Part shown: piece after piece, positions 18,385 to 54,659 of the stretch
How positions within the stretch are numbered: position 1 is the stretch's first letter
Layout: each line of letters starts with the position of its first letter
Assembly (NCBI GenBank): GCA_002305615.1
Contig: DBPU01000026.1
Span: 40,660-95,561, forward strand
Source: Verrucomicrobia bacterium UBA1412
Lineage (GTDB): Bacteria; Verrucomicrobiota; Verrucomicrobiia; Limisphaerales; UBA1412
Reading direction: 5' to 3'
Length of the DNA stretch: 54,902 nucleotides
Program-made: the position numbers and the translations under genes
Notes under the pieces: generated by a model
What the model saw: the letters and a program-made list of their open reading frames with translations, nothing else
Database searches by the model: none
What the model was told of the DNA's origin: nothing

Positions 18385-18399
18385 TTTAGAACCTTACGA

Positions 18400-18431: not shown

Positions 18432-18553
18432 GCGATCGAAATCACGTTTGGCGATAAGAGGTACGCCAAACAATCAGCTCGAATTCTCTCCCTAAAAAAC
18501 CAGACATTCACCATCTTGAGGGAGTGGAAAAATGAAATTCTCTTTTAGCCAGG

Positions 18554-24553: not shown

Positions 24554-24566
24554 GAATATTCCAGAG

Positions 24567-26825: not shown

Positions 26826-26846
26826 TGGTAAATCCTCCTCATTTCT

Positions 26847-34716: not shown

Positions 34717-34744
34717 TTTCACCAACAAAGAGTAAACTGTCGAT

Positions 34745-35491: not shown

Positions 35492-35527
35492 CACTCATCT
35501 GAAACATTAAGGAATTAAGGATCAAAT

Positions 35528-38887: not shown

Positions 38888-39460
38888 TCAAATGTTAAGA
38901 GGAATTACACCCAAATCCGAGGCAATCGTGCTGCCATTAGGATCGTGGTAGAGTGCTCTTACCGTCACCTTTTTCTGAGCAGGCATTTCTTCATCTTCCC
39001 AAACAAGGAGCAACTGATAGCCCACACCAAGGAGACTTTCCTTGGAAAGAGGTTTCAGCTCTTCGGGTGAGTATTTCCAGGTTTTAATTAGAGGAAGCTC
39101 CTCTCTATTATCCGGCTGATAAAAACCGTCGAAAAGCTCCACCTCCAGTTCCCCCTGAAGGATCGGCGAACCTTTAGCTTTACCCGGCTTAACCGCGAAA
39201 ACCTGAATAGCCACCGCTTTTTTTGAGTGCTTCGCATCTACCTCAAGACCGAAAGGAACCATCAGAAGGTTCAGCTCGGAAAATTGCCTGCTCGCTGGCG
39301 TAGACTGACTGGAGACACCCGTCCGGGAGACTTCCCCCGTCTGACACCCGGATAAAACAGGCAGCAGACAACACAGAAACAGGGATATCCACAAAGGCTC
39401 CTGTCTTAGCAAGAGCCTTCGCTTGCTTTTTCTAACAAACCTATTCCAAAAAGAGATCAT
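38888..39460 (-). CDS. Lipoprotein translationally coupled to the secretin (candidate pilotin or secretin accessory factor)
   Basis: 190 aa with the lipobox LPVLSGC and a beta-rich mature part. Its ATG overlaps the secretin stop as ATGA (39457-39460). It is the last gene before the terminator. Confidence 0.6.
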   Translation of the reverse strand: MISFWNRFVRKSKRRLLLRQEPLWISLFLCCLLPVLSGCQTGEVSRTGVSSQSTPASRQFSELNLLMVPFGLEVDAKHSKKAVAIQVFAVKPGKAKGSPILQGELEVELFDGFYQPDNREELPLIKTWKYSPEELKPLSKESLLGVGYQLLLVWEDEEMPAQKKVTVRALYHDPNGSTIASDLGVIPLNI

Positions 39461-42400
39461 GGATCAATCAAGAGTTCCTTCGTATGATTCACACTCCGTT
39501 TCGTCTTTTTATCAGAGCCCTCAGCATCCTCATTCATTTCCAGACCTTCCGGAAGAATCCCCTTCAGAACTTTTTCCTGCAAAGGATCCCGTTTCATTCC
39601 TGTTTGAAGAATGGAATCCTGGAATCCCTTGCGGGTCATATCCATCACGTCCATGATGTTTGTTCCGGTCTGTGAACTGGACATAATGACCTGAGGCGTT
39701 AATACAATCAGGAGCTCTTTACGGTCAACTTCATAAGCCTTGTTGCGAAACAGAGCTCCCAGGAGAGGAATATTCCCAATCCAGGGAACCTTCTTGGACC
39801 GCGAATCGTCCGTGGTACTGATGAGGCCGCCGATGAGAACCGATTGACCACTCTGAACACTTACCGTCGTGCGCGCTGTTCGCTGCGATATAATCGGAAT
39901 TTTCACATCCTTGCTCACTTCCACCGTATCGCTCGTCAATTGGCTCACTTCCGGCTCAACCGTCATTTTCACAGTTCCATCCGGACTGATGCTGGGAGTC
40001 ACCGTCAAAATGACACCCACATTCTCGTACTCATAGGTACTGGTCTGGTTTCCGTAATCGCTGAACCGTGTATCGGTCACGATCGGGACCCTCTCGCCAA
40101 TATTGATGTTTGCCTCCACGTTGTCTGCTGTGAGTATCTGAGGCGAGCTTAGCACCTCCAGCCTCCCATCCTCCTGCAACGCACGCATGAGGAAGTTGAC
40201 TTTACTGCCGGTTACAGCCGCACTGAAACCGCCAAACTTCTCCAACGCATCGGCCACACCCAGATCGGTTCCTAAACTGAAAGGAGTCCCTCCGGCCGCA
40301 TCCATATATTTCCATTCAACTCCAAGCTCCGTTTTGCTGTCAAGTGTCACCTCAGCCAACACGACTTGAATCAAGACTTGCGGCAACGGTTGATCCAATT
40401 CCTCAATCAAGGCCTCGACCTCAGTGAAATAACGGGGGCTTGAAGAAATGAGCAAAGAGTTGCTCACGGTTTCGGCAACAATGGAGACCTCCCTGTCCAG
40501 AATGGTTTGGGCCGCACCGGCTCCGCTTTGTCCCAGAATGGATATCGTTCGGTTCAAGTCTTGTTGCAAAAATGTCCGCAGTGCTGTTTCCATATCAGCA
40601 GCTCGGGAGTTGCGCAAGCGATAGACTTTTGCCTTTCGTTCTTGAGCAGGATGTGAATCCAGGGTTTGTATAATCTCGCTGGCCAACGATACGTAATGCT
40701 CGGTACCTCCCACCAAAACGGTATTAGTACGCAGATCAATCGTCACCGTCAGTGCATACTGTTCAGCTGAGCCCACGACGGCTGATTTTCCGTCGCTCCC
40801 ACCTGCTGCTTCTGTTGGTTCGATCCCCATTTGTTCGCTCAAAGCATCACTCATCGGCTTAACCAGTGTGTACTCCACAGAGCGCTGTGAGGCCGCACCT
40901 GTCGTCGCCTGCAGCCGGAAGAGTGCCGTCAGAACGGTCGCCATCTGCCGAGCATCTGCATTCTTGAGAGAAAAAATCTGAATCTTCGCCTCTTGAGGAG
41001 AGGCCTGATCCATACTCTTCACCAGGGAAACCAGAAACTCCATATAATCCACCGGTGCTGATACGATGAGAGAGTTGGAGCGAGCATCCGGTGTAATCAA
41101 AATTCCTTCTCTGAGCGCGGAAGAAACTATATCTTTGCCTTCCTGCGTACGAGTAATAAATTGGAGAAGTGATTGGCGCGCTACGCTCGTTTGAGTCAGA
41201 TTCTGCGGGTTTGTATTCAGAACTGAATTCAAAATACTGGAGAGCTCCGTCGCTCTTGCATAGGTCAGCGAAAAAATGCGAATCTCATTTACTCGAGCAA
41301 CCTGGGTCGTATCCAGTTTTTCCACCAGCTCCTGAAGCCGCTTGATGTCATTCTCGCCCGCTGAAACAATAATTGCATTGATACGCTCATCGGCATTAAC
41401 CGTCGGTCCTACACCGGCCCCAAAGCCGCCTCCACCCTGTTGCCCACGCAGCAACGCCTGCACCGTCGTAGCCACACGGCGCGCATCCGCATTCTTCATG
41501 GGGAAAACCTGCACCTTCACTGTATCAGTTTCCGGCTGATCCAATTGAGTAATGAGCGACTGAACCATTGATTCGTCGTCGGGACTCGAGCCAATAACCA
41601 ACGCATTCGACCACGCATCTGCCACGATTGTGATGGGGTCCGAAGGAACTCCTCTGGACTGAGCGGGACGATTCTGGAAAAGGCGCTGAAGAGTCATCTG
41701 CATTTTTGACGCCGTCGAATTCTTCAATGGATAAATATTGAAGAGAATCCGGCTGTTAGCATCTTTGACATCCAGCTCTACGAGCATTTTCCCTAAAAGG
41801 TCCAAGTCTTCTTTCCCGCCAGTAACCAGAAGAACGTTCGAGCGTTCATCGGCCGCAATGGTAATCGGCATGGCGCGCTCACGAATACCAGCACGACTTT
41901 CTGCATTGCTCTTGTTTCGGAAAAAGGTATCCAGTGTCGTAATTATCGTACCGGCTCGAGCATGTTTGAGCGCATAAGTCTGGATATCGCTCGCGTTGCG
42001 ATTTTCCTCTGTATCAATCTCCGAGATGAGCTCTTTGGCCAGTGCCATGTTTTCCGGACTTGCCGAAATAATTAACGTATTGGAGGGAATATCCGAAGTA
42101 ATCGCGAATGCATCCCGTTGAGAGCCCCCTCCACGTCTTCCTTGCACAGAAGACCCCGGGCGGTAAACACCTTGCTGAATAAGCGTACGCAGCATGGTGC
42201 TGACTCTTTGCGCATCGGCATACTTGAGGACGAGTGTCTCCACCAAACCTTCCGCAATCGGTTCCTGATCGAGTTTTTTCACCAGGTCGTGAACCGTCTT
42301 CAGATTATCACTATTGGCCGTGACGATCAGCGAATTGCTCAGAGTATCAGCTTCCACATTGACTCGATCTTGAGGATCCGGTTGGACTCCCGGCTGAGAT

Positions 42401-45400
42401 ATTGCCTGCAAACGTGCAGCAAATACACTGCGAATCGTGGCTGCCAACCGAGTGGCGTCATTTTGCTCAAGAATGATCACCTCCGGCTCCAGGTTTGGAT
42501 TCTCCATTGGCTTATCAAGTTTAGCCAATAACTCATCCAACAACTTATTATCTTCATCACTGGCCGCCACAAGCAAACTGTTGCTGCGAGGATCAGGCAA
42601 GATCACCGCCTGGTTAGCAACTCCTCCGCCTCGGCCACCTCCCCATCCGCCACCGGAAGAGCGGCGTTGGAAAAGCGCGGAGAGCGTACTGCTCAGCCTT
42701 TGCGCGGTGGCATGTTTAAGCTCAATCTGGCGTATATTGTTAAAGAGTGCCGAATCCCTGGAATCCAGCTCCTGAGCCAGATTTTCTATCAAGGCCATGT
42801 TCGCATTGGAGCCCCCGATAATGAGGCTGTTGCTGCGAGCATCGGCCAAAATAACCGTTCTCACCTCATCGGCTTGTCCTCGCTGCCGCACCCGCTCATT
42901 AATTAAGCGCTGCAACGACATCGACAGCGAATTAGCATCCGAGTTCTTCAACGCAATAATCCGAACTCCGCTCATATCTGAAGGGAGCTCCCGGTCCAAC
43001 TGACGGATCACCTCATCCAACGCAACTTTATTGGATTGAGAGACGCCCACGATCAACCTGTTTAAGCCTGCCGGCGAAGGGTCGGTAATGATCTTAATCG
43101 GCTTGGATAAATCCAAGATAATATCCTTACCCTCCTCATCTTTGAGGCTGAGGCGCTGCACCATCTCTGTCTGTGTCCCGGGGCGCCCGGGACCTCTTCT
43201 CATCCCGGCTTCGGCTCCGAAGAGGTTCTGCAATAGAACTCCCATTTGAGTCCCAGAAACATACTTCAACGGATAAACCTTAACCTCCATTTCTGCAGTT
43301 CCGGTATCCATATCCAGTTCAGATATGATCTGAACCAGCTTCTCCATCACCGCATCACGCGCTATGAGGAAAAGCGAACGCGTCCGTTCATCTGCAGAAA
43401 CCGCTACTGGGTCTCCGGGCCGAACCACATCAAGCTGATTGAGCACCCGATTGACAATCTGCAGCATTTGCGTCGGATTGGCATTCTTCAGAATCACCAT
43501 CTTGTATTCCAATAGTGAATCAATCCCCTCCGCATCCAGCTGTTTGATAAGTGACTCCAGAGCGACGAAATCAGCCGGCTTGGCTCTAACAATCACACTG
43601 CGAGTCCGGGTTTCCGGAACGATAATAGCACGCGGAACCGGAGGCAACCCCGGCTGGCCCTGTTGCTGCTGAGGCGGTTGCTGAGGTTGGCCCTGCTGCT
43701 GCCCTTGCTGTTGGCCCTGCTGCTGTTGTTGTTGCTGGCGGCCATTTCTGCCTTCTCCCCTGGCTCCAAATCTGGATTCCGCATCCACCGAAATGGGGGC
43801 CGTACTGAAAAGCTGATTAAGCGTGCGGGCTAACATCACCGGGTCCGCCTCGTTCAACCTGAAAAGACGAATCTCCGAGTCCCCTTGGCTGAAAGAACTT
43901 TGCAGCTGAGAAACAATGGAGCGTATCCGATCCACCTCAAAGCTCGGACCCGAAACAATCAGCGTATTGGCATTTGAATCTACCGCCAAAGTCACCTTCA
44001 TCGGCTCGGATTCCTCTGCCTGAGATACCGTCGACACCTGCGGCGCAACTTCCTCCTCAGTCGCCTTCGGTGCTTTATACCCGGTTGCAGTTCCTGTCTT
44101 TTCAGCGGTGCGGGGTGGAAGCTTTTCCACAATCTCGAGCATAGAGGGCGATATCTGCGGATAGATATTCTCCAGCACTTTCGCCATCTGCTCTGCCGAC
44201 ATGTTCGTTACGGGAATAAGACGGACCACCTCGGTTAGATCACGAGCGATGTTGTCCATCTTTTCGATCATCTCTTCAATCTCTTGGAAGTCCTTTTCCC
44301 GTGCCACGACAGTCAACGTATTGGCAATGAAGTCGGACTCAAAAATCATCTGTTCCGGCCGGCCCGGGTCGTTAAAAAGCCCATCCAGCCTCAGCTCAAC
44401 GTCCAAAGCATCCGCATTCACCAATGTGTAGAAACGAACCTCTCTATCCGGCTTCTCCGGTTTTTGATCAACCACCTTGAGAATTTTTTCCAGCATGGAA
44501 AGCTTGCTCGGAGAGCCCATAACCACAATGCTGTTGTTTTTCTCGTCCGGAGACATGGTCAGAGAATCCTGATTTGAAGAGCGGCTCCATGCCCATGAGA
44601 TTCCCCTCCGTGAGGAGCCATGCCCTTGCATCAGGGTGTTGATGGTGCGCATCGCCTCACTGGTGTAAATATTCTCCAGTTTATAGGTTCGGAGCTCCAT
44701 CTGGCGCTCCGGCAACTCTGTAAGCAGAGTTTGCATGATGGATTCGATCAAGGGCATCTGTTTTTCATTGGCAGCCACAATGAGACGCCCGGAAAAGTCA
44801 TCCGGCAAAATGATCGCATCCGGCGGGCCAGCCTCGGTTAAACCTTTGATCTGATCACGATAAAGCTCCTGTAAACGCTCGGAGTACCCCCAGACATCCC
44901 AGGTGTCGATATCAAACATTCTCAAGACGCGTGCATCCCGCACTTGTGGAACATCCAACTGCTCGATGAGTTTGCCAAGGCGATCAGCCTCCCCTGCACT
45001 TCCGGAAACGATGATTCGGTTATTCAGATCATCTGCAGTAGCTCTCGTGGAAACAGTGCTGCGGCTGGTTCTGCTGTAAATCACGGTGTTCAACACCGGC
45101 ACCAATTGTGAAGGTCTTGCCGATTTCAGTGTGAACATACGAACCGTGGGCTCGGCCGCATCGCTCTTTTCCTGGAGCGTTTTCACGACGCCGTCCATCA
45201 TCTCCTTCTGATCTTTGCGCACCCCCACGATCAACTTGCCGCTATAGTCATCGCCAAAAATATATGCATCGGCAGCGCCCAACCCGCTATTACCCTTCAA
45301 CTGATCTTGATAGAGGTTTTTCACGTTGTTGGCAAATTGGTACATGTTCGCATATTGCACGTCATAGGTGCAAACCACGCGCTCCAATCCTTGTCCGGCG

Positions 45401-48400
45401 CTATCAAACTCTTTAACTAGCTGCTCCGCGTATTCAATATCCTCCAGCATGCCGAATACAAAAATACCACCCGTGCGCGTGTCAGCCGAAATCCAGGGCG
45501 CCATTCCCGGCCTCTGCATACGTCGAGCCCGCACCACGAAGTTAAGCGCGGCGGCAATCTCCTGATTGCTGGCATTGGTCGGCTGCAATAGCTTCAACTG
45601 CATATCCGGCAGTGTCGCTTTGTCGTCGAGCTTATTTACAATCTCGTCAATCAACGCAAGCTGATCGCGAGATGCAGCTACCATCATTCTGCCAAATTCG
45701 TTATCCGGCAAAAAAATGGCATCCGCTATTCCCAGTTCCGGTTTAGCCTTGATCTGGTCTGTGTAAAACGTACGCACCCGGTTGATTTGATCATTTACAT
45801 TGCGGGAGGTTACCCGATAGGTTTTCATCTCCCGAGCTTGCTCCATTTCAGAGCTGTCCAGCTCATTAATGATCATCTCCACCTGAGTAATATCTGTCGG
45901 CCGGCCATAAACAACGATAGCATTGCGTTGGATATCAAGGTTCACGGTAGGAGCAACCCCTCTGGTCCGCACGCCGCCCCGATATAAAGTCACATGCTGC
46001 ACCAATGGGTAGATATTTCTCGCATCAGCTCGTTTCAGCTTAAAAACACGCAGACTGCTTTCGATTTGAACGTCCTGATTCAGAGCCTCAATCACCTTCT
46101 CAATGATCTGCATCTGATTCTGAGAGGCCGATACGACTAGTCGCCCCGTGTAATCAGGAAAAAATTTCGCATCTCCTGCACCCTTTCCCGGAGCCGCCCC
46201 CATTTGATCCCGATAGAGTTGCTGGACCTGCTCAGTAAAACTCCACATATCCGGAGTTTTCACGTTGAAAATCTTCATTTCACGTGGATTATCCGTCGCA
46301 GCCCCGTCCAGTTCCGCAATGATCTGTTCGGCCTTGGCTATATCAGCCGGTCTGCCATAAACGAAAATTTTGTTCTCATTCCAATCCGGATAAACCCAGG
46401 GCCGCATTCCTCTGGAGCGAGTCTCACGGTTGAAAATCATCTGCAAAGCGCTCTGAACCATGCTCGGGCTGGAACCTTTGAGCAGAAATTGGCGAAATTC
46501 ACCGTTAGCCGCAGCACTCTCTCCCAACAGTAATTCCAGGAGCTCCTCCAGCAATTTCATATGCGATTCGCTGGCTGCTACCGTAATACTGTTGGCAGAA
46601 TAATCGGGGATAAAAACCGCATCGGGAGCGCCCGCTTCCGGTTTTGATTTAAGCTGATCATTGTAGATCATCTTCAACCGATTCATCAGCTCATAAGGGT
46701 CCGAATACTGGGCCGAAAAAACTTTAACAATGCGGGGTTCACGATCCTGATTGAGATCAATCTGCTCAATCAGTGCGCTTGCCTGTTCGATATCGCTTAT
46801 CGTGCCACAAACAACCAGGCTATTGTTGTGGCCATCAACAAAAACCGAGGGGTTCGGTCCCCCCTTTCGTTTTTCTCGATATGTGTTTAAGTAACGATTT
46901 AAAACGCTGGACAGCTCATAGGGATAGTTTCCTCGAAGCCGAAAAACTTTTACACCCAGAGAACCTCCGCTTTTAAGGTCTATCTCCTCGACAATAGCTT
47001 TGATCTTTTCTAGCTCTTCATCCGAGCCGCAGATAATTAACCGGCCCGTGTTGGGCTCGGGAATAATCCTTGGCACATCCATTCGTTGCATCTGCTGAAG
47101 CCTGCGGCGCTCCTGAGGCGTACTGCCCGCAACGTCATTGCGCATTTGCTCCGCCAACACTTGCGTTGTCAGATTGGCTATTTGATACGGATCCCCTTGA
47201 ATATCCAGAAAACGGATTTGCCGCGAACTCACTGAAGAGGACTGCACATCCAGGTCTTTAATCACGTCCCGAACAGCCTGCAGCACTCCGGCTTTGCCAT
47301 TCAATACCAGGCTGTTGCTGCGCTCATCCACCAGAACCCTCAAGCCAAAACGGCGATCATTGAACGTTTTTTCAATGAGCCCTCCAATTTCCAGTGCCAC
47401 TGCATACTGCAGACGAACCACACTGGTTTCATTTTTTTCAAGACTGGCTTGGTCCGGAGTTCCCTTCTGCGTGGAATCCGTATCTGCAGTGCTAAAACCA
47501 TCCACCTTCTCAATTGCCGCTTCAATCTCCTTGAGCAGTGCTGCATTCGAACTGATGACCATCAGGCGATCGAACTTCGGATCAACAACCAGCTTGGCCT
47601 TCTGCGGATCATTCTCATTGGCCGCCGCGATTCCATTGACCATCTGGCGTAACATCGTGGAAAGCTCCTCCGGAGTCATCCTTCGCGGATAAAATATCTT
47701 GGTATCCAGCGTCACTGCCGTGGATTTATCTCCTTCAGTATCCAGCTGAGCTATCACTCGCTCAATGAGAGCTAGCTGCTCAGGGTCTGCAGTGATAACC
47801 AGAAGACGGCCCTGTTTAGCATCCACAACCAGGCGGGCTTTGTTGGAAACTCGCTCGCCCGGCGCTGCTATTCCGCTCACGCTCTGGCGCAACATATCCG
47901 ACAGCTCACTGGGCGAAAGATGTTTCGGGTAGATAATCTTCATATCCGACACCGTTGATGCTGGGGCAATTCCCGCTCCCATACTGGCCGGATCGACTTT
48001 CTTGATCACCTTTTCAATAGTCTCCATTTGCCCGGCTACCGGAGTCGTCACAATCAATCTTCCCAGTTTTTCATCAACCACTAACCGGGCCTTAGTGACG
48101 GCTGTATCCGGATTTTCTCGAGGGCCGGCTACACCGCTCACCGTCTGAAAAATCACGTTTGAGAGTTCAGCTGGAGTCATCTCAATCGGATAAAAAATTC
48201 TCACATCCGTCGGTGAGAGGCCTTCCTTATTTTCAAAGCGGTTGATCAGCTGTTCGGCTAAATCCACGCGTTCGGTAGGACCAAAAATAACCATCGTCCT
48301 CGATGCTTCATCCCAAACCGCTGTCACATAATCTTCAGGGCTCGGAGGCAGAGGTATGTAGCTATTCTTCTCTTTATTGTACTGACTCTTGACCGGGGCA

Positions 48401-49140
48401 GTCGCTATACCGAAAGTCCGGTTGATTAAATCCGTCAGTACCGGCCCCGACGCACTCAGGATATTGAACGTGCGCATCTGACGTTCCATCGGAGGGGCTA
48501 CGTCTGCCAGCATCAATAGCTTTTCTATCCGCTCAATATTCTCAATCCGGTCGGTCACGATAATCCCTTTGCCACGGCCGGCAGGGAAAACCGAACCCGC
48601 ATTGGAAAGCATCGTTGTTGTCGATTGAGCGATTTCATTCGGATCCAGATTCTTGAAATTCAACGCCACCGTTACGATTTCACCGGGGCGTACATCTCCC
48701 TTTTCTTCCAGATTCCTCAAGACTTTGACCGGAGTCTGCCGAAGCTTGGACAGCGGAAGCAGTCTCAAATAACGGTCTTGCTCAACCAGCATGGCATCCT
48801 TCATCGAAAGAATCAGGTTCAACGTATCCAGCGCCTCAGTATAGCCGTAAGGCTCAGGATCCGAGAACTTCATCGTCCCATCCAACGAAACGTCTACCAA
48901 TAAAGGCTTATTCACCATCTGAGCAAATCGCTCAATGACGGTCATGTAAGGAATTCCGTCAAACTGGAAGCGAATATTTTTGGCTTCCTGATTTGTCGTC
49001 GGCTCTGGAGCCGTCGGTGCATTCACGGGGGCGTTCGTGCCCCCTGCATTGGGTTGAGCCGTCTGCGCTTTAGCGTAAACCAGGCTGGCTACCATGCAGC
49101 CCAGCAGCGCCGAAAGTCTTATTGCTTTTCTAATTGTCAT
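39457..49140 (-). CDS. Giant secretin (GspD/PilQ superfamily), 3227 aa: signal peptide, N0, about 33 N-domain modules, secretin core, 75-aa tail
   Basis: Signal peptide ..LVYA|KAQ and an N0-like domain at aa 55-130. Repeated modules end in the motifs VDERSNSLVLNG, ADARSNSLIIGG, PDPRSNSLLVAA, AADERSNVLLVTG, PDARSNSLIVSA and IDLRTNTVLVGG. The C-terminal secretin core (aa ~2919-3152) has VLSSPQILTADNVEANINIGERVPIV, GVILTVTPSISPDGTVKMTVEPEVS, VPWIGNIPLLGALFRNK and LLIVLTPQVI. Confidence 0.9.
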   Translation of the reverse strand: MTIRKAIRLSALLGCMVASLVYAKAQTAQPNAGGTNAPVNAPTAPEPTTNQEAKNIRFQFDGIPYMTVIERFAQMVNKPLLVDVSLDGTMKFSDPEPYGYTEALDTLNLILSMKDAMLVEQDRYLRLLPLSKLRQTPVKVLRNLEEKGDVRPGEIVTVALNFKNLDPNEIAQSTTTMLSNAGSVFPAGRGKGIIVTDRIENIERIEKLLMLADVAPPMERQMRTFNILSASGPVLTDLINRTFGIATAPVKSQYNKEKNSYIPLPPSPEDYVTAVWDEASRTMVIFGPTERVDLAEQLINRFENKEGLSPTDVRIFYPIEMTPAELSNVIFQTVSGVAGPRENPDTAVTKARLVVDEKLGRLIVTTPVAGQMETIEKVIKKVDPASMGAGIAPASTVSDMKIIYPKHLSPSELSDMLRQSVSGIAAPGERVSNKARLVVDAKQGRLLVITADPEQLALIERVIAQLDTEGDKSTAVTLDTKIFYPRRMTPEELSTMLRQMVNGIAAANENDPQKAKLVVDPKFDRLMVISSNAALLKEIEAAIEKVDGFSTADTDSTQKGTPDQASLEKNETSVVRLQYAVALEIGGLIEKTFNDRRFGLRVLVDERSNSLVLNGKAGVLQAVRDVIKDLDVQSSSVSSRQIRFLDIQGDPYQIANLTTQVLAEQMRNDVAGSTPQERRRLQQMQRMDVPRIIPEPNTGRLIICGSDEELEKIKAIVEEIDLKSGGSLGVKVFRLRGNYPYELSSVLNRYLNTYREKRKGGPNPSVFVDGHNNSLVVCGTISDIEQASALIEQIDLNQDREPRIVKVFSAQYSDPYELMNRLKMIYNDQLKSKPEAGAPDAVFIPDYSANSITVAASESHMKLLEELLELLLGESAAANGEFRQFLLKGSSPSMVQSALQMIFNRETRSRGMRPWVYPDWNENKIFVYGRPADIAKAEQIIAELDGAATDNPREMKIFNVKTPDMWSFTEQVQQLYRDQMGAAPGKGAGDAKFFPDYTGRLVVSASQNQMQIIEKVIEALNQDVQIESSLRVFKLKRADARNIYPLVQHVTLYRGGVRTRGVAPTVNLDIQRNAIVVYGRPTDITQVEMIINELDSSEMEQAREMKTYRVTSRNVNDQINRVRTFYTDQIKAKPELGIADAIFLPDNEFGRMMVAASRDQLALIDEIVNKLDDKATLPDMQLKLLQPTNASNQEIAAALNFVVRARRMQRPGMAPWISADTRTGGIFVFGMLEDIEYAEQLVKEFDSAGQGLERVVCTYDVQYANMYQFANNVKNLYQDQLKGNSGLGAADAYIFGDDYSGKLIVGVRKDQKEMMDGVVKTLQEKSDAAEPTVRMFTLKSARPSQLVPVLNTVIYSRTSRSTVSTRATADDLNNRIIVSGSAGEADRLGKLIEQLDVPQVRDARVLRMFDIDTWDVWGYSERLQELYRDQIKGLTEAGPPDAIILPDDFSGRLIVAANEKQMPLIESIMQTLLTELPERQMELRTYKLENIYTSEAMRTINTLMQGHGSSRRGISWAWSRSSNQDSLTMSPDEKNNSIVVMGSPSKLSMLEKILKVVDQKPEKPDREVRFYTLVNADALDVELRLDGLFNDPGRPEQMIFESDFIANTLTVVAREKDFQEIEEMIEKMDNIARDLTEVVRLIPVTNMSAEQMAKVLENIYPQISPSMLEIVEKLPPRTAEKTGTATGYKAPKATEEEVAPQVSTVSQAEESEPMKVTLAVDSNANTLIVSGPSFEVDRIRSIVSQLQSSFSQGDSEIRLFRLNEADPVMLARTLNQLFSTAPISVDAESRFGARGEGRNGRQQQQQQQGQQQGQQQGQPQQPPQQQQGQPGLPPVPRAIIVPETRTRSVIVRAKPADFVALESLIKQLDAEGIDSLLEYKMVILKNANPTQMLQIVNRVLNQLDVVRPGDPVAVSADERTRSLFLIARDAVMEKLVQIISELDMDTGTAEMEVKVYPLKYVSGTQMGVLLQNLFGAEAGMRRGPGRPGTQTEMVQRLSLKDEEGKDIILDLSKPIKIITDPSPAGLNRLIVGVSQSNKVALDEVIRQLDRELPSDMSGVRIIALKNSDANSLSMSLQRLINERVRQRGQADEVRTVILADARSNSLIIGGSNANMALIENLAQELDSRDSALFNNIRQIELKHATAQRLSSTLSALFQRRSSGGGWGGGRGGGVANQAVILPDPRSNSLLVAASDEDNKLLDELLAKLDKPMENPNLEPEVIILEQNDATRLAATIRSVFAARLQAISQPGVQPDPQDRVNVEADTLSNSLIVTANSDNLKTVHDLVKKLDQEPIAEGLVETLVLKYADAQRVSTMLRTLIQQGVYRPGSSVQGRRGGGSQRDAFAITSDIPSNTLIISASPENMALAKELISEIDTEENRNASDIQTYALKHARAGTIITTLDTFFRNKSNAESRAGIRERAMPITIAADERSNVLLVTGGKEDLDLLGKMLVELDVKDANSRILFNIYPLKNSTASKMQMTLQRLFQNRPAQSRGVPSDPITIVADAWSNALVIGSSPDDESMVQSLITQLDQPETDTVKVQVFPMKNADARRVATTVQALLRGQQGGGGFGAGVGPTVNADERINAIIVSAGENDIKRLQELVEKLDTTQVARVNEIRIFSLTYARATELSSILNSVLNTNPQNLTQTSVARQSLLQFITRTQEGKDIVSSALREGILITPDARSNSLIVSAPVDYMEFLVSLVKSMDQASPQEAKIQIFSLKNADARQMATVLTALFRLQATTGAASQRSVEYTLVKPMSDALSEQMGIEPTEAAGGSDGKSAVVGSAEQYALTVTIDLRTNTVLVGGTEHYVSLASEIIQTLDSHPAQERKAKVYRLRNSRAADMETALRTFLQQDLNRTISILGQSGAGAAQTILDREVSIVAETVSNSLLISSSPRYFTEVEALIEELDQPLPQVLIQVVLAEVTLDSKTELGVEWKYMDAAGGTPFSLGTDLGVADALEKFGGFSAAVTGSKVNFLMRALQEDGRLEVLSSPQILTADNVEANINIGERVPIVTDTRFSDYGNQTSTYEYENVGVILTVTPSISPDGTVKMTVEPEVSQLTSDTVEVSKDVKIPIISQRTARTTVSVQSGQSVLIGGLISTTDDSRSKKVPWIGNIPLLGALFRNKAYEVDRKELLIVLTPQVIMSSSQTGTNIMDVMDMTRKGFQDSILQTGMKRDPLQEKVLKGILPEGLEMNEDAEGSDKKTKRSVNHTKELLIDP
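43648..43740 (-). repeat. In-frame Gln/Gly/Pro low-complexity tract (CAG/CAA-rich) within a secretin N-module loop
   Basis: Encodes RQQQQQQQGQQQGQQQGQPQQPPQQQQGQPG (aa 1801-1831). The plus strand reads ..ctgctgctgttgttgttgctg... Confidence 0.9.
44467..46728 (-). repeat. Five consecutive ~150-aa (450-nt) two-module super-repeats inside the secretin (aa 805-1558)
   Basis: Type-A modules start at aa 805, 955, 1105, 1256 and 1406. Their YxDQ motif (IYNDQLK, LYRDQMG, FYTDQIK, LYQDQLK, LYRDQIK) falls at aa 826, 976, 1126, 1277 and 1427, and a DA-x-F/I-x-PD motif follows. They alternate with type-B modules (..RPWVYPD..IFVYGRPADI.., ..VVYGRPTDI.., ..APWISAD..IFVFGMLEDI..). Confidence 0.75.
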
Positions 49141-50170
49141 TGTTTTTTAAATCTTCTTTCTGTTTAAGGTCTAAGGGGAGTTGCTCTTCGTTCATCTGAT
49201 GCAGCTGAGCCAGCGTGCATCCCTGTTCCAAAGCCCAATATCCCGAGGTGTTCTTCAAAATTACTCTACTTTCCGAATCCAGAATGGAATCGGGCATAGG
49301 CATGGAGCGATAATCTACTGCCATAATTGTCCATCCCTCAATGGTGTCGCCGGGCTGATAAACCGCAACGGAACCGGATTCCACGTTTTTGAGGTGTATT
49401 TCGGCCTTTCCGGCCCACTCGGAAAGTGAAATCACTTTAAAAATTTCCGGACGAAAAGCCGGAGGAGTACTGTTTTCCGCAACAGCAGTCTCTCCCGGAG
49501 AAGAAACATTTTCAGGCCGTTTCACATAGGGACGGAATAAATCTCTGACCACGATTCCTTCATAAAGCTGCCTCTCCGGAGTCCCCAGCTCCGCCACGGC
49601 AACCTCCGTCATCGTATTCGTACCCAGGTTCGCCGGCGGGGGCTCCAAGACCAAAGTCAGATAGCGAAAACCTATCTTAACGACACCCGGCTGACTCGAT
49701 GCCGAAAGTCTGACTCCGTCCAGTTTGTGCAAAGCTTCTGCACTCTGTAAAAGGTAAAGTAAATCCACGACTTTTGTGAGCGGTCCCTCTCCTTGTACGG
49801 TCCAACCGACTTCACGCGCCAGGCCGCGCCCGACTCGAGTCGGGCCTACAGGGGAACGAGTGAACTGCCGCGGATTTAATCCCACTTGCTCTATCAATTT
49901 GTTCAGCAGTTCGCCCAGCACTCCGTTGGCCTGATCCGTGTGAGTGTGAATCATCTTTTGCGCAGCAGCCTGGACTTCCTTCTCAGCTATCTTGTATTGA
50001 TCCTGTTCTTTCTTGAGTTTCCCGAGTTTTACCTGAAGTTGAGTCTTCTGACTTCTCAAGTCTTTAGCCGGTTTTACGATAGCCCCCTGTATCAAAAGAA
50101 CGACAACAATAACCGCAACAAAGGAGAGAACTACAATTGCCAATATCTTTTCGCGACCTCTTATCTGCAT
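49130..50170 (-). CDS. Inner-membrane platform protein: PilO/GspM-like N-terminal half fused to a PilP/GspC-HR-like C-terminal domain
   Basis: 346 aa. The TM segment ILAIVVLSFVAVIVVVLLI is followed by a coiled coil and a ferredoxin-like block (WTVQGEGPLTKVVDLLYLLQS..LDGVRLS..GFRYLTLVL). A VRDLFRPY motif and the beta-domain KAEIHLKNVESGSVAVYQPGDTIEGWTIMAVDY resemble PilP. Its stop overlaps the secretin start by 11 nt. Confidence 0.6.
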   Translation of the reverse strand: MQIRGREKILAIVVLSFVAVIVVVLLIQGAIVKPAKDLRSQKTQLQVKLGKLKKEQDQYKIAEKEVQAAAQKMIHTHTDQANGVLGELLNKLIEQVGLNPRQFTRSPVGPTRVGRGLAREVGWTVQGEGPLTKVVDLLYLLQSAEALHKLDGVRLSASSQPGVVKIGFRYLTLVLEPPPANLGTNTMTEVAVAELGTPERQLYEGIVVRDLFRPYVKRPENVSSPGETAVAENSTPPAFRPEIFKVISLSEWAGKAEIHLKNVESGSVAVYQPGDTIEGWTIMAVDYRSMPMPDSILDSESRVILKNTSGYWALEQGCTLAQLHQMNEEQLPLDLKQKEDLKNNDN

Positions 50171-50172
50171 AA

Positions 50173-51939
50173 CTATCGGCCTCCTCTACCGGCTTGTTGT
50201 TGAGCACGCGCAGGGTTCCTGCGTTGCTGCTGTTGTTGTGGCGATTGAGCCTCAGCTGCCTGTGCCGCCTTTTGATTCATCTCCCGCCGCTGCTGTGCAT
50301 TCAACAAGGAAATATCATCCTGCGGCCGCTCCGGTGCCACACCCAGTGTTTCCAGATCCGGCTTGGCTCCGGGAGAGAGCAATAGCTCCATGCTCGTCTG
50401 GAATCCATATCCGCTTCTGCCACTGACCGGCGTAATTGCCGGAGTTTTCAGCCTATAGCCCGCTTCCCGCAATTGGGCATCAAGCTTTGCAATGATATCA
50501 CTTCGAGTAGCCCGGACTGACAAAACAATATTACTACGGGCTCCCGTCGAAAAACTGGCCACATACAGCTCTTGAGACTCGGGCAGTAATGTACTCAGAA
50601 CGGCCAAGTGGTCCAGCCAGTGCAACTCTCCGCTTTGCCATGCCCTCAACGAAAGAGCCTGAATTATGTTTTGCCTCCAGAGATTTTGGTTTTTTGAGAG
50701 ACTGTTGAACTCTTCTTGAACCACGGCAAGCTCAGCCGTCCGGGTTTTAAGAACATGAGAGCGAATTATGAAAAACGAGCCAAATAACATCAATACAACG
50801 ACAACCGCCAGCACAGCCTGACGGGTCTTGCCGGTATTGGGCATTGTAGGCTTTTTAGGATTCAAAAAGTCGATGGATAAATGATCTTTCTCCAAAATTC
50901 CTGCAGCCAGCCCGACCATCGAAGTAAGAGAAAGAGTATCGAGATTCTCCTTATTTTTCAGCTGCAAAAGCTCTGCAGGGTTGAACTCCTCAACTCCGAT
51001 GCCGGCTGTCTGAGTTCGGGCCCTGAGCGAATCTAATACCTGGGCCGTTTCTGCCCCCATGTTCATCACATAAATCTTGCTGATCTGCCCCTGTAAATCC
51101 TCCTGCTCATAAGAGTGCAGACACCGTACCGTCTCTGTCGTTATCTGCTCTATTCGCTCTTCCTCCTGTTTTTTATCCTTCTGATTGGGTGCCGATTCTT
51201 TCAAAGAGGCTTCACGGCTGAATACCAGATTCTCTCCCTTGACCACATCCAAAATAACCGTATCCTCCGTCACAGAAAGGAGCATCAAGGTTTCAGTAAA
51301 ATCTTTCGGGACTACGCCGCAATAGTGCAAGCTCTCTGCCCTGCCGTCCGATTGAAAGCCCAACGCAATCAGCTTCAAACCGGCCGCTTTGCAAATCTCC
51401 CTGTAGCGGTTCACCACCATGACCGGAACCACTGCCACAGTAATCTGCAGCTGCTTTTCGGGCTTCTTTTCAGCTTCCGATGCTTCAGGAGAATCCAGAG
51501 CTTTCGGCTGTTCTTTGGCGATCTGAATTGAAAAATCTATAACCGCATCCTCTGAGCGAAAGGGCAAATCACGGGCAATCTGGAAGTGAACCATGGAAGC
51601 AGCCTCTCCCTCATTTTCCACAAAGGGAATCATCATCTGCCTCAGCATCACCTCTGAGCGAGGAACCCCAAAAGCCACACCCCCGGGGTGGAATTTCAAC
51701 TCCTTAAGCTTCTTGCCCAGTATCTCTCCGAGCTCTTTGTCTTTCGCCATGGGAGGCACTTCCAGCCTTGCCTCTTCATAGCGCGATATCCTCATACCGG
51801 AGCCGCGCTTGGCCGCATAAAGCAATCTAAGCTCTTCCCCCGCCAAGTCTAAAACCGCCACTGAGGTGGGCGCTTTTTTCATATTCAAAAGCTCCCTCAC
51901 CTTCTTCTCCAGATTTTTTATATTAAATTTTTCTGCCAC
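50173..51939 (-). CDS. PilM-like cytoplasmic actin-fold domain fused through one TM to a PilN-like periplasmic domain (GspL-equivalent)
   Basis: 588 aa. The PilM-like part has VAVLDLAGEELRLLYAAK..GVAFGVPRSEVMLRQMMIPF..VHFQIARDLPFRSEDAVIDFSI. The TM segment is AVLAVVVVLMLFGSFFII. The PilN-like part has a coiled coil plus WLDHLAVLSTLLPESQELYVASFS. The tail is Gln-rich (SPQQQQQRRNPARAQQQAGRGGR). Confidence 0.65.
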   Translation of the reverse strand: MAEKFNIKNLEKKVRELLNMKKAPTSVAVLDLAGEELRLLYAAKRGSGMRISRYEEARLEVPPMAKDKELGEILGKKLKELKFHPGGVAFGVPRSEVMLRQMMIPFVENEGEAASMVHFQIARDLPFRSEDAVIDFSIQIAKEQPKALDSPEASEAEKKPEKQLQITVAVVPVMVVNRYREICKAAGLKLIALGFQSDGRAESLHYCGVVPKDFTETLMLLSVTEDTVILDVVKGENLVFSREASLKESAPNQKDKKQEEERIEQITTETVRCLHSYEQEDLQGQISKIYVMNMGAETAQVLDSLRARTQTAGIGVEEFNPAELLQLKNKENLDTLSLTSMVGLAAGILEKDHLSIDFLNPKKPTMPNTGKTRQAVLAVVVVLMLFGSFFIIRSHVLKTRTAELAVVQEEFNSLSKNQNLWRQNIIQALSLRAWQSGELHWLDHLAVLSTLLPESQELYVASFSTGARSNIVLSVRATRSDIIAKLDAQLREAGYRLKTPAITPVSGRSGYGFQTSMELLLSPGAKPDLETLGVAPERPQDDISLLNAQQRREMNQKAAQAAEAQSPQQQQQRRNPARAQQQAGRGGR

Positions 51940-51951
51940 GCCTCGTTCTCC

Positions 51952-53418
51952 CTAGATTGCTGCTGAACTGGTCCCACTAATCCCGTTAACTCCGTTATCG
52001 ATTTTAAAAGGCATTCCCAAACGCGTCAAATCCCGCATCATCAAAATCCGGGGTGTCTTCCCGGCTATATCGACAATTACTTCCAATATCCTGTACCTCC
52101 CCGAAGGGATTGAATACCCCATTACATAAAAATGATACTGCCAGGAACGGGTCGTGATATAAGGATAAACGGCTTGAAACTTTTCAAGGCTCAAAACGCC
52201 CTGATTCAAAAGCCATGCAGGAGTATTGAGCTGATCTGCCAATAGTCCTTCCCGTGCGGAGATAATCGCCTCTGCTTCGCTCTCTTCCATTCCCGGCAAA
52301 ACCATCAGCACCTCCTTTGAGGCCGTATTCACGTTGATTAAAGCCGGAAGGTAAGCTTCGTCTATCGTAGTACACGAATCAAAAACCTTTTCCATCTCGT
52401 CGTCTGACAGTTCCACCCGATAATCCTTTTCATTGCCCTCTTCATCTTTCAATTTCTCACTGGAATTGAGCAATACAGTCAGACTCTCGATCTTTTTATT
52501 GTTCCTCTGCATGGCTTCTATAAAAGAAAGGGTCTCCATGGACAACCCCAGAGACGCCAGCTCCGCATTGGTGCTGTTGATATTGAGCCGCGGCTCTCCC
52601 AAGCTATCCCGATTCAGATCATAAGATGCTGTGGTCAAAAAATGTCTCAGTCCCATGCCTAAAGGCCCCGAACCTACACCTTCCTGAAAAATCTCCCCCA
52701 CATCCTGGGTACCGCTGTCGCTCTTCAGATTCATATCCAAATCCTTTCCATAAAGAGCTTTCAAATTATATCCTTCCCGGGCCACAAAAGCATCCAAAAA
52801 CTCATACGTCGGAGCCTCTGAGCTACCTTTCTGAACAGGCACTTCAGCTTTACCCTCTTCCGGCTGACTGGGAGAGGCTCCTTCCTGGCTTTCACCGGAG
52901 GTCGGAGCCATTTCATCTACTTCTTCTTCCGGAAGGGACACATCAAAATCGTTTTCTTCAGCGGAGGATGTTTTATCCTTCAGCGCAGCCAGAAGCTCTG
53001 AATCTTCAATGGATTCCTTCAGAGCATCGGGCAAATACTTTAAATTCAATTTTCTGGCCTCATCCGTTAACCCATACGCTATAGCGCTTTCACTATCTTC
53101 AGAGCCACTCCAGTCATACACGGTGAAATACCATTTTTCCTGCCCATCCTCCACTACAAATTGATCTTTGAATTCATCAGGATTATCTCTCCATTCTGCC
53201 AAGCCGGTTTCTGCAGCAAGTGCCACCTGAATAGCCTTATAAACACCGCTGAGCGCGACAGCCCACGCCTGTTCACCCTCCTGGCCTGCGCTTGACGCAG
53301 TCTCTGCAGATTTCATCGCATAGAGCAAACTCACAGCAACCATTGAGCTCAGCAGAATAACCACCAAAACCGCATACAACACAAACCCGGGACAAACCGT
53401 TTTCCTGTAAACTCTCAT
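51952..53418 (-). CDS. gspK: GspK-like minor pseudopilin with an acidic insertion
   Basis: The N-terminus ..CPG|FVLYAVLVVILLSSMVAV has no Glu at +5, as in GspK. It also has the helix-hairpin-helix block INVNTASKEVLMVLPGMEESEAEAIISAR and the C-terminal WQYHFYVMGYSIPSGRYRILEVIVDI. ATGA overlap with the upstream gene. Confidence 0.65.
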   Translation of the reverse strand: MRVYRKTVCPGFVLYAVLVVILLSSMVAVSLLYAMKSAETASSAGQEGEQAWAVALSGVYKAIQVALAAETGLAEWRDNPDEFKDQFVVEDGQEKWYFTVYDWSGSEDSESAIAYGLTDEARKLNLKYLPDALKESIEDSELLAALKDKTSSAEENDFDVSLPEEEVDEMAPTSGESQEGASPSQPEEGKAEVPVQKGSSEAPTYEFLDAFVAREGYNLKALYGKDLDMNLKSDSGTQDVGEIFQEGVGSGPLGMGLRHFLTTASYDLNRDSLGEPRLNINSTNAELASLGLSMETLSFIEAMQRNNKKIESLTVLLNSSEKLKDEEGNEKDYRVELSDDEMEKVFDSCTTIDEAYLPALINVNTASKEVLMVLPGMEESEAEAIISAREGLLADQLNTPAWLLNQGVLSLEKFQAVYPYITTRSWQYHFYVMGYSIPSGRYRILEVIVDIAGKTPRILMMRDLTRLGMPFKIDNGVNGISGTSSAAI

Positions 53419-54659
53419 CGTCCCCTCCTTGGGCTGACTGTTCCAGCCCCGGTGGCTCCGGCATCCAGCCCGCCACTCAACGATACACCAGAAGCGCCCC
53501 CTGGAGACGCACTCTGTTTTCGCGCATTGGGCAAAAATATGATCCTTTGAAAAACAACCACGTTGGTATCCAGCCCGCTGCTGATATCTTCTATCTGCTC
53601 CAGGCCCAAATCCTCATAAGGCGTGGTCTCTTGAATATCATCGGCAAATCCATTCGTTTCTGAACCGGCAGATTCTGACTCCGAAAATGCCTGCTCAAAA
53701 ACCTTGGACTCTTCTTCGGCTTCCCGGTCAGCCTTGGCTTCTTCTGTCTCGGGGTCTTCCGCAGCCATCCGGATTTCAATACCCAGGGGCAATTCCTTTG
53801 CGTTCCAACTGCTAACCCACTGTGTTCCATCGTAATAACGGAGATTAAAGTAGCCTATCCCGCGGGCGAACACATTGCTGATTACGATCTTCTTTTCCTG
53901 AGGAGCCCCTTCATCAATCAACCCTTCCATCGCCATGAAACCGTTGCTCTGTTGCAGCCCAGCATCCTCGCCCCAGAACGCATCGCCTGCAAAGAGAACT
54001 TCTGCATTCGTACCTTGAGGAGTAGACTCTTCATCTTCCAAATTCTCCGAGAGCAAATTCGTCGCACTAAGACCGGAATTCAAGTTCCCCAAAAGATTCG
54101 TTTCCATCTCCGAGGTTTCTCCACTCACAACGTTTGTATCGCCTTCATCCTCCTGCCCAGCAGTAAGATTTGTCTCTGTTTGCCCCAGCAAAATCGGCTC
54201 TTCTATGCGCTCCAGAACAGAAAGACCTCCCGCCGGATCCGGAGAAATTCGATAAAAAGTTTTTTTGAAAGTCGGCTGCATCCGAATGGACGCCATTTCT
54301 CCACTTTCATTCGTGAGCAGGCTTCCCCTGACCGGCGGATCCAGCCGGATAAATTCAATCGAAGAGGCGCTTCCTTTCACCCCTGCAAGGAGATCACTAC
54401 CCGGCACAGCGCAACGCAACTCAGAACTGAGCCGGTCCATAACCAGCCGCACGGCCGTTATCCGGTCCATCTCCTCAAGAGCATCCTTCCTGAGCCGTGT
54501 AGACTGCTCATAAAAATAGAGAGCCACAACCATGATGCCGATGGCGATCGTCACAGCTAAAACGACTTCAAGCAACGTAAAGCCCAGCCGGCCCCTTCGC
54601 ACTTGTTGCGAGTTGCTCTCCGGGATCAAATTGCTTTCCATTCTATCAACCATCGCCAT
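53415..54659 (-). CDS. GspJ-like minor pseudopilin, enlarged (414 aa) by acidic low-complexity insertions
   Basis: Prepilin-type N-terminus RRGRLG|FTLLEVVLAVTIAIGIMVVALYFY with Glu at +5. The GspJ-like block is GIGYFNLRYYDGTQWVSSWNAKELPLGIEIRM. Two Asp/Glu/Ser/Thr-rich insertions are present. Confidence 0.6.
   Translation of the reverse strand: MAMVDRMESNLIPESNSQQVRRGRLGFTLLEVVLAVTIAIGIMVVALYFYEQSTRLRKDALEEMDRITAVRLVMDRLSSELRCAVPGSDLLAGVKGSASSIEFIRLDPPVRGSLLTNESGEMASIRMQPTFKKTFYRISPDPAGGLSVLERIEEPILLGQTETNLTAGQEDEGDTNVVSGETSEMETNLLGNLNSGLSATNLLSENLEDEESTPQGTNAEVLFAGDAFWGEDAGLQQSNGFMAMEGLIDEGAPQEKKIVISNVFARGIGYFNLRYYDGTQWVSSWNAKELPLGIEIRMAAEDPETEEAKADREAEEESKVFEQAFSESESAGSETNGFADDIQETTPYEDLGLEQIEDISSGLDTNVVVFQRIIFLPNARKQSASPGGASGVSLSGGLDAGATGAGTVSPRRGR

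Follow-up and report, generated by a model that had tools for sequence, protein, structure and literature searches.

Secretins are the outer-membrane gates shared by type II and type III secretion systems (T2SS and T3SS), type IV pili and the export machinery of filamentous phages. The window analysed here, a stretch of 54,902 nucleotides from Verrucomicrobia bacterium UBA1412 (contig DBPU01000026.1), carries at 39457..49140 on its minus strand a gene for a giant secretin, which is almost certainly the GspD-family outer-membrane secretin of a T2SS, and in which the region of ring-building N-modules is expanded about ten-fold. While a canonical GspD contains three such modules (N1-N3), the giant secretin contains 33 and is about 5 times longer, a single N2 position having been expanded by ancient serial duplication to yield 31 extra ring-building modules. 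The assignment to GspD, made from sequence comparison and gene context, is based on the Pfam and NCBIfam scores, the best matches in the PDB and among known folds, a profile match to N0-N1 and the T2SS operon in which the gene is embedded. When this identity is taken jointly with the mechanism proposed below, in which the modules would be stacked ring on ring into a long periplasmic conduit, we put the probability of the combined reading at roughly 0.55.

All coordinates are given as window positions and protein positions in amino acids (aa), module 0 being N1 and modules 1-32 the array; every feature of the secretin gene and its operon lies on the minus strand. The gene is a single open reading frame (ORF) of 3227 codons that opens with ATG and runs on uninterrupted by stops, in agreement with a preliminary description made from the letters of this DNA, and the mature product has a mass of ~353 kDa and a pI of 5.1. 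From the N-terminus, the protein comprises a signal peptide, a short Pro/Thr/Ala-rich linker, N0, the 33 ring-building modules, one secretin core and a 75-aa tail. The signal peptide, likewise part of the preliminary description, is putative and of Sec type (aa 1-25; 49066..49140), with an n-region MTIRKAIR, a hydrophobic core and a probable AKA/Q cleavage site, all read by eye. A lipobox-like LLGC at aa 12-15, which might have suggested a 'liposecretin', was rejected, since homologs do not keep Cys15 and the h-region in front of it is not long enough. The N0 domain (aa 55-133; 48742..48978) is matched weakly and below cut-off by the Pfam N0 model (PF21305; aa 67-122, E=1.5e-3, 18.8 bits vs 27); a profile of 12 family sequences (aa 48-470) aligns to N0-N1 of GspD 3EZJ (E=4e-9) and of PulD 6HCG, and the AlphaFold2 (AF2) model and its Foldseek matches likewise place N0 here, in line with the N0-like domain previously noticed at aa ~55-130. 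Its identity to N0 of an ortholog that is 86% identical overall reaches 95%, with a ratio of nonsynonymous to synonymous substitution rates (dN/dS) of 0.03, and together with N1 it is the most conserved part of the protein outside the core. Module 0 (aa 134-214; 48499..48741) is a canonical N1, identified by its profile match to GspD N1 and folded as beta-alpha-beta-beta-alpha in the AF2 model; the hidden Markov model (HMM) trained on the protein itself matches it only weakly.

The remaining modules, 1-32, form a contiguous Secretin_N or ring-building array (aa 215-2916; 40393..48498) recognised by Pfam, by the self-trained profile and in part by AF2. The Pfam Secretin_N family (PF03958) matches with E=1.3e-239 in 20 separately significant stretches, where about 10 had been set in advance as the least that the array should yield. 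A profile iterated on the giant secretin itself delineates 32 modules at i-E<0.01, which tile aa 215-2916 without gaps and which, together with N1, reproduce the earlier count by eye of about 33; as a significance test for the modules such a profile is circular, and the independent evidence (Pfam, the profile match to PDB entries and AF2 secondary structure) together covers 14 of the 33. The modules are 71-122 aa long with a median of 80.5, share the order beta1-alpha1-(variable loop)-beta2-beta3-alpha2 when aligned, and almost all close with ..LD. The array is followed by the secretin core or C-domain (aa 2917-3152; 39685..40392), previously placed at aa ~2919-3152 and recovered here by Pfam Secretin (PF00263; aa 2987-3152, E=6.7e-52), by the match to PulD 6HCG and by Foldseek. 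The C-terminal 75-aa tail (39460..39684), assigned to the position of the S-domain from sequence only, is the least conserved part of the protein, with 71-91% identity to three of four orthologs and dN/dS of 0.07-0.19. Against the ortholog of 96% overall identity (L005:10001-19654) the tail is 100% identical, and lies inside a stretch of the last ~310 codons (39460-40392, core and tail) in which the synonymous rate dS is 0.012-0.022, compared with 0.3-0.55 in the rest of the gene; from the sequences, this 3' end of gspD looks like a tract of recent recombination or gene conversion. In the Pfam scan of the giant secretin no peptidoglycan-binding domain of the AMIN, LysM or OmpA-like type was found. 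Pfam matches to KH families (KH_PARP14_2, KH_DEAH11, KH_SLS1_1) and to Maelstrom were discarded as fold-level cross-talk of the beta-alpha-beta-beta-alpha module, with no independent stretch to any of them. The same eukaryotic KH families turn up in the precomputed annotations of almost every homolog and might lead automatic annotation astray.

Structure prediction agrees with this layout at both ends of the protein, AF2 secondary structure being available for modules 1-3 and 23-32. In the model of aa 2050-3160 ten consecutive modules with the order E-H-E-E-H (pLDDT, the per-residue confidence, mostly 70-86) are joined by linkers of 5-10 residues, as read from the predicted secondary structure, and lead into the barrel, while the model of the N-terminal segment shows N0 and then four beta-alpha-beta-beta-alpha units (mean pLDDT 72, with 83-88 in N0). 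Foldseek returns ExeD/GspD (E~1e-21) and PulD as the best matches of the C-proximal model, and PulD as well as XcpQ N0-N1-N2 and GspD N0-N2 (for XcpQ/GspD, target-normalised TM-score ~0.48, E~1e-10) as those of the N-terminal model.

The choice among the secretin families is made by model scores and structural matches alike. Among the NCBIfam models, GspD (TIGR02517) reaches 899.8 bits (cut-off 351.35), a total that is inflated by 17 repeated stretches, SctC scores 312.8 and PilQ 301.4; the single best stretch of TIGR02517 (aa 2796-3156 on model positions 194-594) and the ranking of PDB entries agree on GspD. Searched with the last 516 aa, the PDB returns PulD/GspD at E=3e-43 to 1e-32 (PulD 6HCG at 3e-43), PilQ at 5e-26 and InvG at 2.5e-15. 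By every test made, the giant secretin thus belongs to the same family as GspD, PulD, XcpQ and ExeD (~650-750 aa; 15-mers in 6HCG, 5WQ7, 5WLN and 6I1X), and has in common with them N0, N-modules, an N3-like module fused to the barrel, a C-terminal tail and a T2SS operon. Those features of a GspD that sequence analysis can assess, namely the core, N0-N1, ring-building modules, a score above the model cut-off and a T2SS context, are all present, and the departure lies in the domain count, the canonical protein having N0+N1+N2+N3+secretin+S. Since the canonical T2SS secretin consists of N0, N1 and N2 with N3 placed in the C-module (PMC10550240), the earlier statement that this protein is far larger than characterised secretins holds. 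The accompanying one, that its architecture could not be mapped onto any characterised machine, has to be corrected, as both gene context and best model scores indicate a T2SS GspD. A T3SS secretin (SctC/InvG) was rejected on its lower scores and because no T3SS genes occur in the window or in related loci.

In the order of transcription, the operon enters the window with the 3' end of a gene in the gspI position (54669..54902), which is cut at the window edge and matches a 149-aa ORF that follows gspG and a gspH-like gene at the locus of a 94% identical ortholog (L001), where these two genes open the operon. It is followed, in ORFs that overlap or abut, by genes for a GspJ-like minor pseudopilin of 414 aa (53415..54659; TIGR01711 E=6e-5, prepilin N-terminal motif at aa 25-39), a GspK-like minor pseudopilin of 488 aa (51952..53418; PF03934 E=1.2e-6, and NF037980 at E=5.8e-11, below cut-off), a PilM/GspL-like assembly-platform protein of 588 aa (50173..51939; PF11104 E=1.8e-7, and TIGR01175 at E=7e-10, below cut-off) and a GspM-like bitopic partner of 346 aa (49130..50170; NF040576 GspM E=8.9e-6), whose gene overlaps the start of the secretin gene by 11 nt. 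On the far side, the gene for a 190-aa lipoprotein with a lipobox LSG-C39 (38888..39460), by its sequence a candidate pilotin or accessory protein, overlaps the secretin stop by 4 nt. A scan for terminators or promoters after the lipoprotein gene found none. The fullest version of this gene order is seen on a closed 7.9-Mb Limisphaerales chromosome (L014), where gspE-F-G-H-I-J-K-L-M-like genes are followed by a 32% identical secretin of 4220 aa and a small ORF; between this locus and the window, the GspM-like proteins are 38% and the lipoproteins 30% identical.

Both immediate neighbours recur beside the giant gene. A GspM-like gene lies directly upstream in 57 loci, and NF040576 is matched by 7 of 17 members of this partner family, with a best E of 2.9e-13. 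The partner consists of an N-terminal transmembrane segment and GspM-like half, a Pro-rich linker and a conserved C-terminal domain (aa ~240-335) with the invariant motifs S-L-S-x-W, D-Y-R, S-R-x-I and W-A-x-E-x-G; the conserved C-terminal ~90 aa are encoded at 49130-49395. This domain, which by eye may resemble PilP or the HR domain of GspC, has no match in the PDB, searched with the single sequence and with a 17-member profile, nor in Pfam or NCBIfam. The lipoprotein gene lies directly downstream in 76 of 82 loci, essentially all of those with enough flank, G38 and C39 being invariant in the family, and even with a 16-member profile the protein matches nothing in Pfam, NCBIfam, the PDB or among known pilotins. 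Compared with a canonical T2SS, the operon differs in that it has no recognisable GspC, in the extra C-terminal domain of the GspM-like partner and in the dedicated, unrelated small lipoprotein encoded downstream. Several products are also oversized with respect to their family models: the GspJ-like protein (414 aa against 192), the GspK-like protein (488 against 307) and the protein in the GspH position of L001 (288 against 169), as well as the 588-aa PilM/GspL-like protein (loci 50173-54659 in the window and L001:3151-8968). It may be that the tip complex of the pseudopilus has been enlarged together with the secretin. The N-terminal 59 aa of the GspJ-like protein, in addition, weakly match 'Verru_Chthon cassette protein C' (TIGR02599; E=1.2e-3), a Verrucomicrobia-specific pseudopilin-like cassette family.

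Some of these components could also be expected in a type IV pilus, a competence apparatus or another type IV filament machine: the platform protein matches PilM models, the GspK-like protein contains a ComEA-like helix-hairpin-helix match, and the precedent for a secretin with many rings, PilQ of Thermus thermophilus, belongs to a type IV pilus and competence system. That the giant secretin serves such a machine rather than a T2SS is nevertheless very improbable, given that the GspD model, at 900 bits, is far ahead of PilQ (301) and SctC (313), that PilQ entries in the PDB rank ~17 orders of magnitude below GspD/PulD (5e-26 as against 3e-43), that the major pilin is of the T2SSG type and is accompanied by GspH-, GspJ-, GspK- and GspM-like genes, and that neither AMIN domains in the protein nor a retraction ATPase in the L014 operon were found.

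Metagenome assemblies are notorious for errors at giant ORFs rich in repeats, and a protein of this kind could in principle be simulated by repeats that were collapsed or expanded in assembly, by a chimera or by read-through of a pseudogene. We consider the probability of such an assembly or annotation artefact to be vanishingly small. Between pairs of modules identity is 23% in the median and never above 45%, and scans with Tandem Repeats Finder and for other repeats detect in the gene only a 50-nt tract that encodes a Q-rich loop, and no other tandem or long direct repeat, which also disposes of misassembly or recent amplification as the origin of the array. The 94%-identical ortholog of 3214 aa recurs unchanged on 23 contigs that come from independent samples. 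None of the findings that the preliminary description had named as refuting it, a mis-assembled repeat among them, turned up. Three other metagenome-assembled genomes (MAGs) encode co-linear orthologs of 3212-3227 aa at 97, 96 and 86% identity, one of them on a 2.74-Mb contig, and a further co-linear ortholog at 65%; an intact, more distant copy lies on the closed 7.9-Mb chromosome mentioned above. With the record JALNXY010000005.1 the window shares 97% identity. All indels against the 94-97% orthologs are in-frame and are confined to the alpha1-beta2 loops of modules 17, 19, 20 and 31. The per-module dN/dS against the 86% ortholog nowhere exceeds 0.24; because dS is saturated in that comparison, the estimate was repeated with the 94-97% orthologs, in which dS is unsaturated (0.24-0.6) and dN/dS is 0.013-0.09 in every module block, comparable to the core. 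With dN/dS of ~0.05 in each block and indels restricted to loops, all modules are, as judged from these codon comparisons, maintained functional by purifying selection.

Within the array, four module subtypes can be distinguished (N, A, B and C). Modules 2-4 (aa 303-547; 47500..48234) are of the N subtype and share 44-45% mutual identity. Modules 7-16 (aa 722-1472; 44725..46977) form a di-module super-repeat of five A-B pairs, recognised from identities and from the type strings of homologs, A being modules 7, 9, 11, 13 and 15 and B modules 8, 10, 12, 14 and 16; the B modules are 31-36% identical to one another and mostly 14-22% identical to the adjacent A modules. The C-proximal block (modules 23-32; aa 2050-2916; 40393..42993) bears the canonical 'D-x-R-S-N-S-L-I-V' motif of the C type, aligns 1:1 in all homologs, is covered by the match to PulD N2/N3 and secretin and by the AF2 model, and ends in module 32, the equivalent of N3. 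Across the family the N-terminal ~380 aa (N0, N1 and modules 1-2) and the C-terminal ~1100 aa (modules 23-32 and the core), together with most of modules 17-22, align 1:1, so that at least ~20 modules retain their register in proteins diverged to 30% identity, and the A/B region is the part in which copy number differs: the type string is ABABABABAB in the window protein and ABBBABBBAB-like in longer relatives. Since the ends align 1:1 while the number of A/B modules differs, sequence comparison indicates that the array is ancient, with fixed ends and a length tuned in the middle by duplication and loss of units. Loop inserts of 30-50 aa between alpha1 and beta2, which are acidic, Q/G/P-rich, Pro-rich or form an extra hairpin, are carried by modules 19, 20, 22, 30 and 31 (regions aa 1630-1747, 1802-1830, 1944-2049 and 2611-2828). 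That in module 20 is a low-complexity Q/G/P-rich insert seen in the sequence and in repeat scans (aa 1802-1830; 43651..43737), which is polymorphic in length, with indels at aa 1809-1826 against the 94-97% orthologs (L004, L005 and L001). If rings form, the insert loops would decorate one face of the tube.

The protein is not a one-off. Several hundred giant secretins make up its family, in which it is one of the smaller members, and public databases already list them by such unspecific names as 'type II secretion system protein D', 'secretin N-terminal domain-containing protein' or 'hypothetical protein'. In a word-indexed search 327 relatives were retrieved at E<1e-20, and the top 120 all measure 2300-5100 aa; an HMM search with the module profile against 1.84 billion cluster representatives returned 2068 proteins at E<=1e-30, the best 150 being 1794-5532 aa long with 22-60 matched stretches. 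Among the sequences collected, 219 are full-length (2794-5532 aa, median 4054, with 23-51 modules by a conservative count), each starting with N0 and ending with a single core, and length follows the number of modules (r=0.95); the window protein stands at the small end of this range. Relatives are encoded in the genomes of at least 228 GTDB species. Among the best 80 of these, nearly all are MAGs labelled Verrucomicrobiota, Limisphaerales or Pedosphaera, from lakes, groundwater, bioreactors and digesters, and the family is almost entirely one of uncultured Limisphaerales/Pedosphaera-type Verrucomicrobiota. Twelve loci carry a giant gspD in oddly labelled public MAG records (L009, L018, L023, L032, L041, L048, L054, L060, L062, L064, L073 and L078), under names such as Klebsiella pneumoniae, Akkermansia muciniphila, Cyanophyceae, Proteobacteria, Methylomirabilota and Kapaibacterium; these are probably mis-binned or mislabelled depositions. 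The architecture is thus implicitly present in domain databases already. In the full-text literature covered, which includes papers on the cell plan of the Planctomycetes-Verrucomicrobia-Chlamydiae (PVC) bacteria and from which most subscription journals fall outside, no giant secretin with many modules is described, and a giant-gene survey of PVC bacteria (a preprint) does not mention any; the design appears never to have been described or imaged, although a passing mention elsewhere is possible.

What precedents exist for such an array? In the secretins studied so far N0 is followed by one to five ring-building domains, so that the 23-60 of the giant family amount to an extension of about ten-fold. 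The largest characterised secretin is PilQ of T. thermophilus, a 757-aa protein with domains N0-N5 that forms a 13-mer 35 nm long and spans an unusually wide periplasm (PMC5745081). It provides the precedent for lengthening a secretin by means of beta-alpha-beta-beta-alpha rings, although it is a secretin of type IV pili and DNA uptake with five domains after N0 (six rings), where the giant T2SS secretin has 33 after N0, and although, called 'exceptionally long', it amounts to ~1/6 of the giant array. The complex of Deinococcus radiodurans (8CO1; DR_0774), which is among the top fold matches, is likewise a large multi-domain secretin in a thick and atypical envelope, but DR_0774 has ~740 aa, a handful of N-domains and separate belt and cap proteins, its expansion being achieved by accessories and not by tandem modules. 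In T3SS, the same ring-building fold in InvG/SctC, PrgH and PrgK is stacked and nested into a trans-envelope channel, the rings being contributed by several proteins with one to three motifs each and not, as in the giant secretin, by 33 motifs in one polypeptide.

On these grounds we propose that the giant secretin would oligomerise through its core as other GspDs do, which are 15-mers when solved, into an assembly of ~5.3 MDa (15 x 353 kDa), and that its modules would be stacked ring on ring to form a very long periplasmic vestibule. This vestibule would link the outer-membrane pore to a platform of GspL-like and GspM-like proteins on which N0 would sit, and inside the tube a GspG pseudopilus, tipped by GspH/J/K-like proteins of unusual size, would grow by polymerisation and drive folded exoproteins outwards. 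Extrapolated at ~4 nm per ring from Thermus PilQ, in which six N-terminal rings and the secretin domain measure 35 nm, 34 rings would make a tube of roughly 100-150 nm, which would fit only in a greatly enlarged periplasm or where the inner membrane is locally displaced, conditions of which there are reports from PVC bacteria; the number of A/B modules in the middle, varying by lineage, would then set the length. By our own reckoning this stacked-ring mechanism, taken by itself, has somewhat less than an even chance of being correct; the preliminary description had likewise considered a conduit exceeding the normal periplasm, besides modules that fold back and oligomerisation that is only partial. 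It is somewhat unlikely that the family forms the longest secretion conduit known, that is, a stacked 15-fold tube of 100-200 nm and >5 MDa with 33 modules, or ~50-60 in relatives.

Several observations are in keeping with stacking. In the predicted models, the module period and the 5-10-aa linkers resemble those of GspD N1-N3, and the N-modules of secretins in general form 'several superposed ring-like structures' connected by short linkers (PMC10550240). The parts that in other systems touch the platform or form the pore, N0/N1 at one end and N3 with the core at the other, are the most conserved, and N0 of known secretins contacts the inner-membrane partners (PMC10550240). The inner-membrane partner remains at 331-353 aa while the secretin ranges over 2905-5121 aa (Spearman -0.39); therefore the secretin, and not its partner, must cover the distance. 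Between the two membranes of Ellin514 (Pedosphaera parvula) lies a ribosome-free 'paryphoplasm' (PMC2647929), which has been reinterpreted as the periplasm of a Gram-negative plan (PMC3422733; PMC5394234), and an enlarged periplasm or a displaced inner membrane is thus plausible in this clade.

Other observations weigh against the stacked tube. A tube of 100-150 nm would take up much of the width of a small cell, and the two-fold variation in module number (23-51) among related lineages is not what a finely adjusted ruler would lead one to expect. When secretins are isolated, their N-modules prove flexible and poorly ordered (PMC10550240), and the AF2 models are of single chains with a predicted TM-score (pTM) of 0.31-0.34, which is uninformative about the packing of module on module. 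The gspE and gspF genes are not adjacent in the lineage of the window, where they lie elsewhere, as the gene that precedes gspG at L001 is an unrelated transporter on the opposite strand. No gspC is recognisable in the operon of the window or in that of L014, so that the contact of N0 with the platform is assumed by analogy; because the operon is without gspC, the C-terminal domain of the GspM-like partner may, to judge from its conservation, serve as the N0-binding element in its place.

The modules might instead be arranged more compactly, as a zig-zag chain or with the A and B modules of a pair lying side by side or concentrically, giving a thicker, multi-walled or wider and much shorter vestibule that needs no periplasm of >100 nm and would suit a more ordinary one. 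The AB super-repeat of the window protein and the four-module ABBB repeat of its relatives suggest a structural unit of more than one module. In T3SS basal bodies, ring-building motifs form concentric rings of differing stoichiometry, and such nested rings offer a precedent; InvG and PrgH are also mentioned in the context of secretins (PMC10550240). On balance we regard a compact arrangement as unlikely, since linkers of 5-10 residues leave little slack for a reversal at each module, the 13-14 conserved C-proximal modules show no pair periodicity, and no known secretin is arranged in this way.

Alternatively, only the last few modules might form rings, the others hanging from the pore as 15 flexible chains of beads. 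These could act as an elastic link between pore and platform when the inner membrane moves or invaginates, or as a periplasmic basket in which substrates are caught or which attaches to the cell wall. The flexibility and poor resolution of the N-modules of isolated secretins, in which symmetry mismatches are tolerated (PMC10550240), would fit such a tether or cage, as would the variable ring spacing of Thermus PilQ, the evolutionary lability of module number in the middle of the array and the long acidic, Q-rich or Pro-rich loop inserts of modules 19, 20, 22, 30 and 31; PVC inner membranes do invaginate, and envelope-spanning complexes have been likened to 'press-studs' (PMC5394234). Yet the middle modules are under purifying selection as strong as that on the C-proximal ones and the fold is strictly retained in every module, which is more than a spacer needs on either count, and the cell-wall-binding domains AMIN, LysM and OmpA-like were not detected by Pfam. 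We accordingly hold the flexible tether or cage to be quite unlikely, and retain the stacked-ring conduit as our working model, although the two-fold spread in module number and the flexibility of secretin N-modules lend some weight to both alternatives.

Elsewhere in the window, two paralogous four-gene clusters, each encoding an ABC ATPase, an ABC-2 permease, an ABC_transp_aux/DUF7088 (GldG-like) protein and a DUF4340 protein, lie at 33727-38817 on the plus strand and at 22565-27872 on the minus strand. The former is convergent to the T2SS operon and is syntenic with the giant secretin in the close relatives L001-L003 and L006; the latter is followed by a 1104-aa ORF without Pfam match (19270-22584, minus strand). 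The region 1111-19264 encodes a GH29 alpha-L-fucosidase, a GH43/GH32-like enzyme, an aldose 1-epimerase, a glucosamine-6-P isomerase-like protein, two GFO/IDH/MocA oxidoreductases, one of which has a weak, below-cut-off match to a twin-arginine (TAT) signal, and a Cache-HAMP-SpoIIE phosphatase sensor. ORFs at 6748-8100 and 32188-33447 (both minus strand) and at 16503-16940 (plus strand) have no Pfam match, and Rfam and tRNA scans of the window found nothing. This repertoire of a polysaccharide degrader is consistent with a saccharolytic lifestyle that depends on secretion.

Giant secretins are common to hundreds of uncultured Verrucomicrobia, abundant in freshwater, soil and wastewater, and their diverged, putatively self-stacking modules constitute a natural library of ring-building parts for the design of protein nanotubes. 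If the stacked-ring conduit is correct, Verrucomicrobia of the Limisphaerales type would secrete by a T2SS across a hugely enlarged periplasm of varying width by means of an equally long pseudopilus piston, and the envelope geometry of uncultured PVC bacteria could be read from the number of modules in their genomes. An array that spans the envelope would be a built-in molecular ruler for the 'paryphoplasm' and would bear on the long-standing debate about the PVC cell plan.

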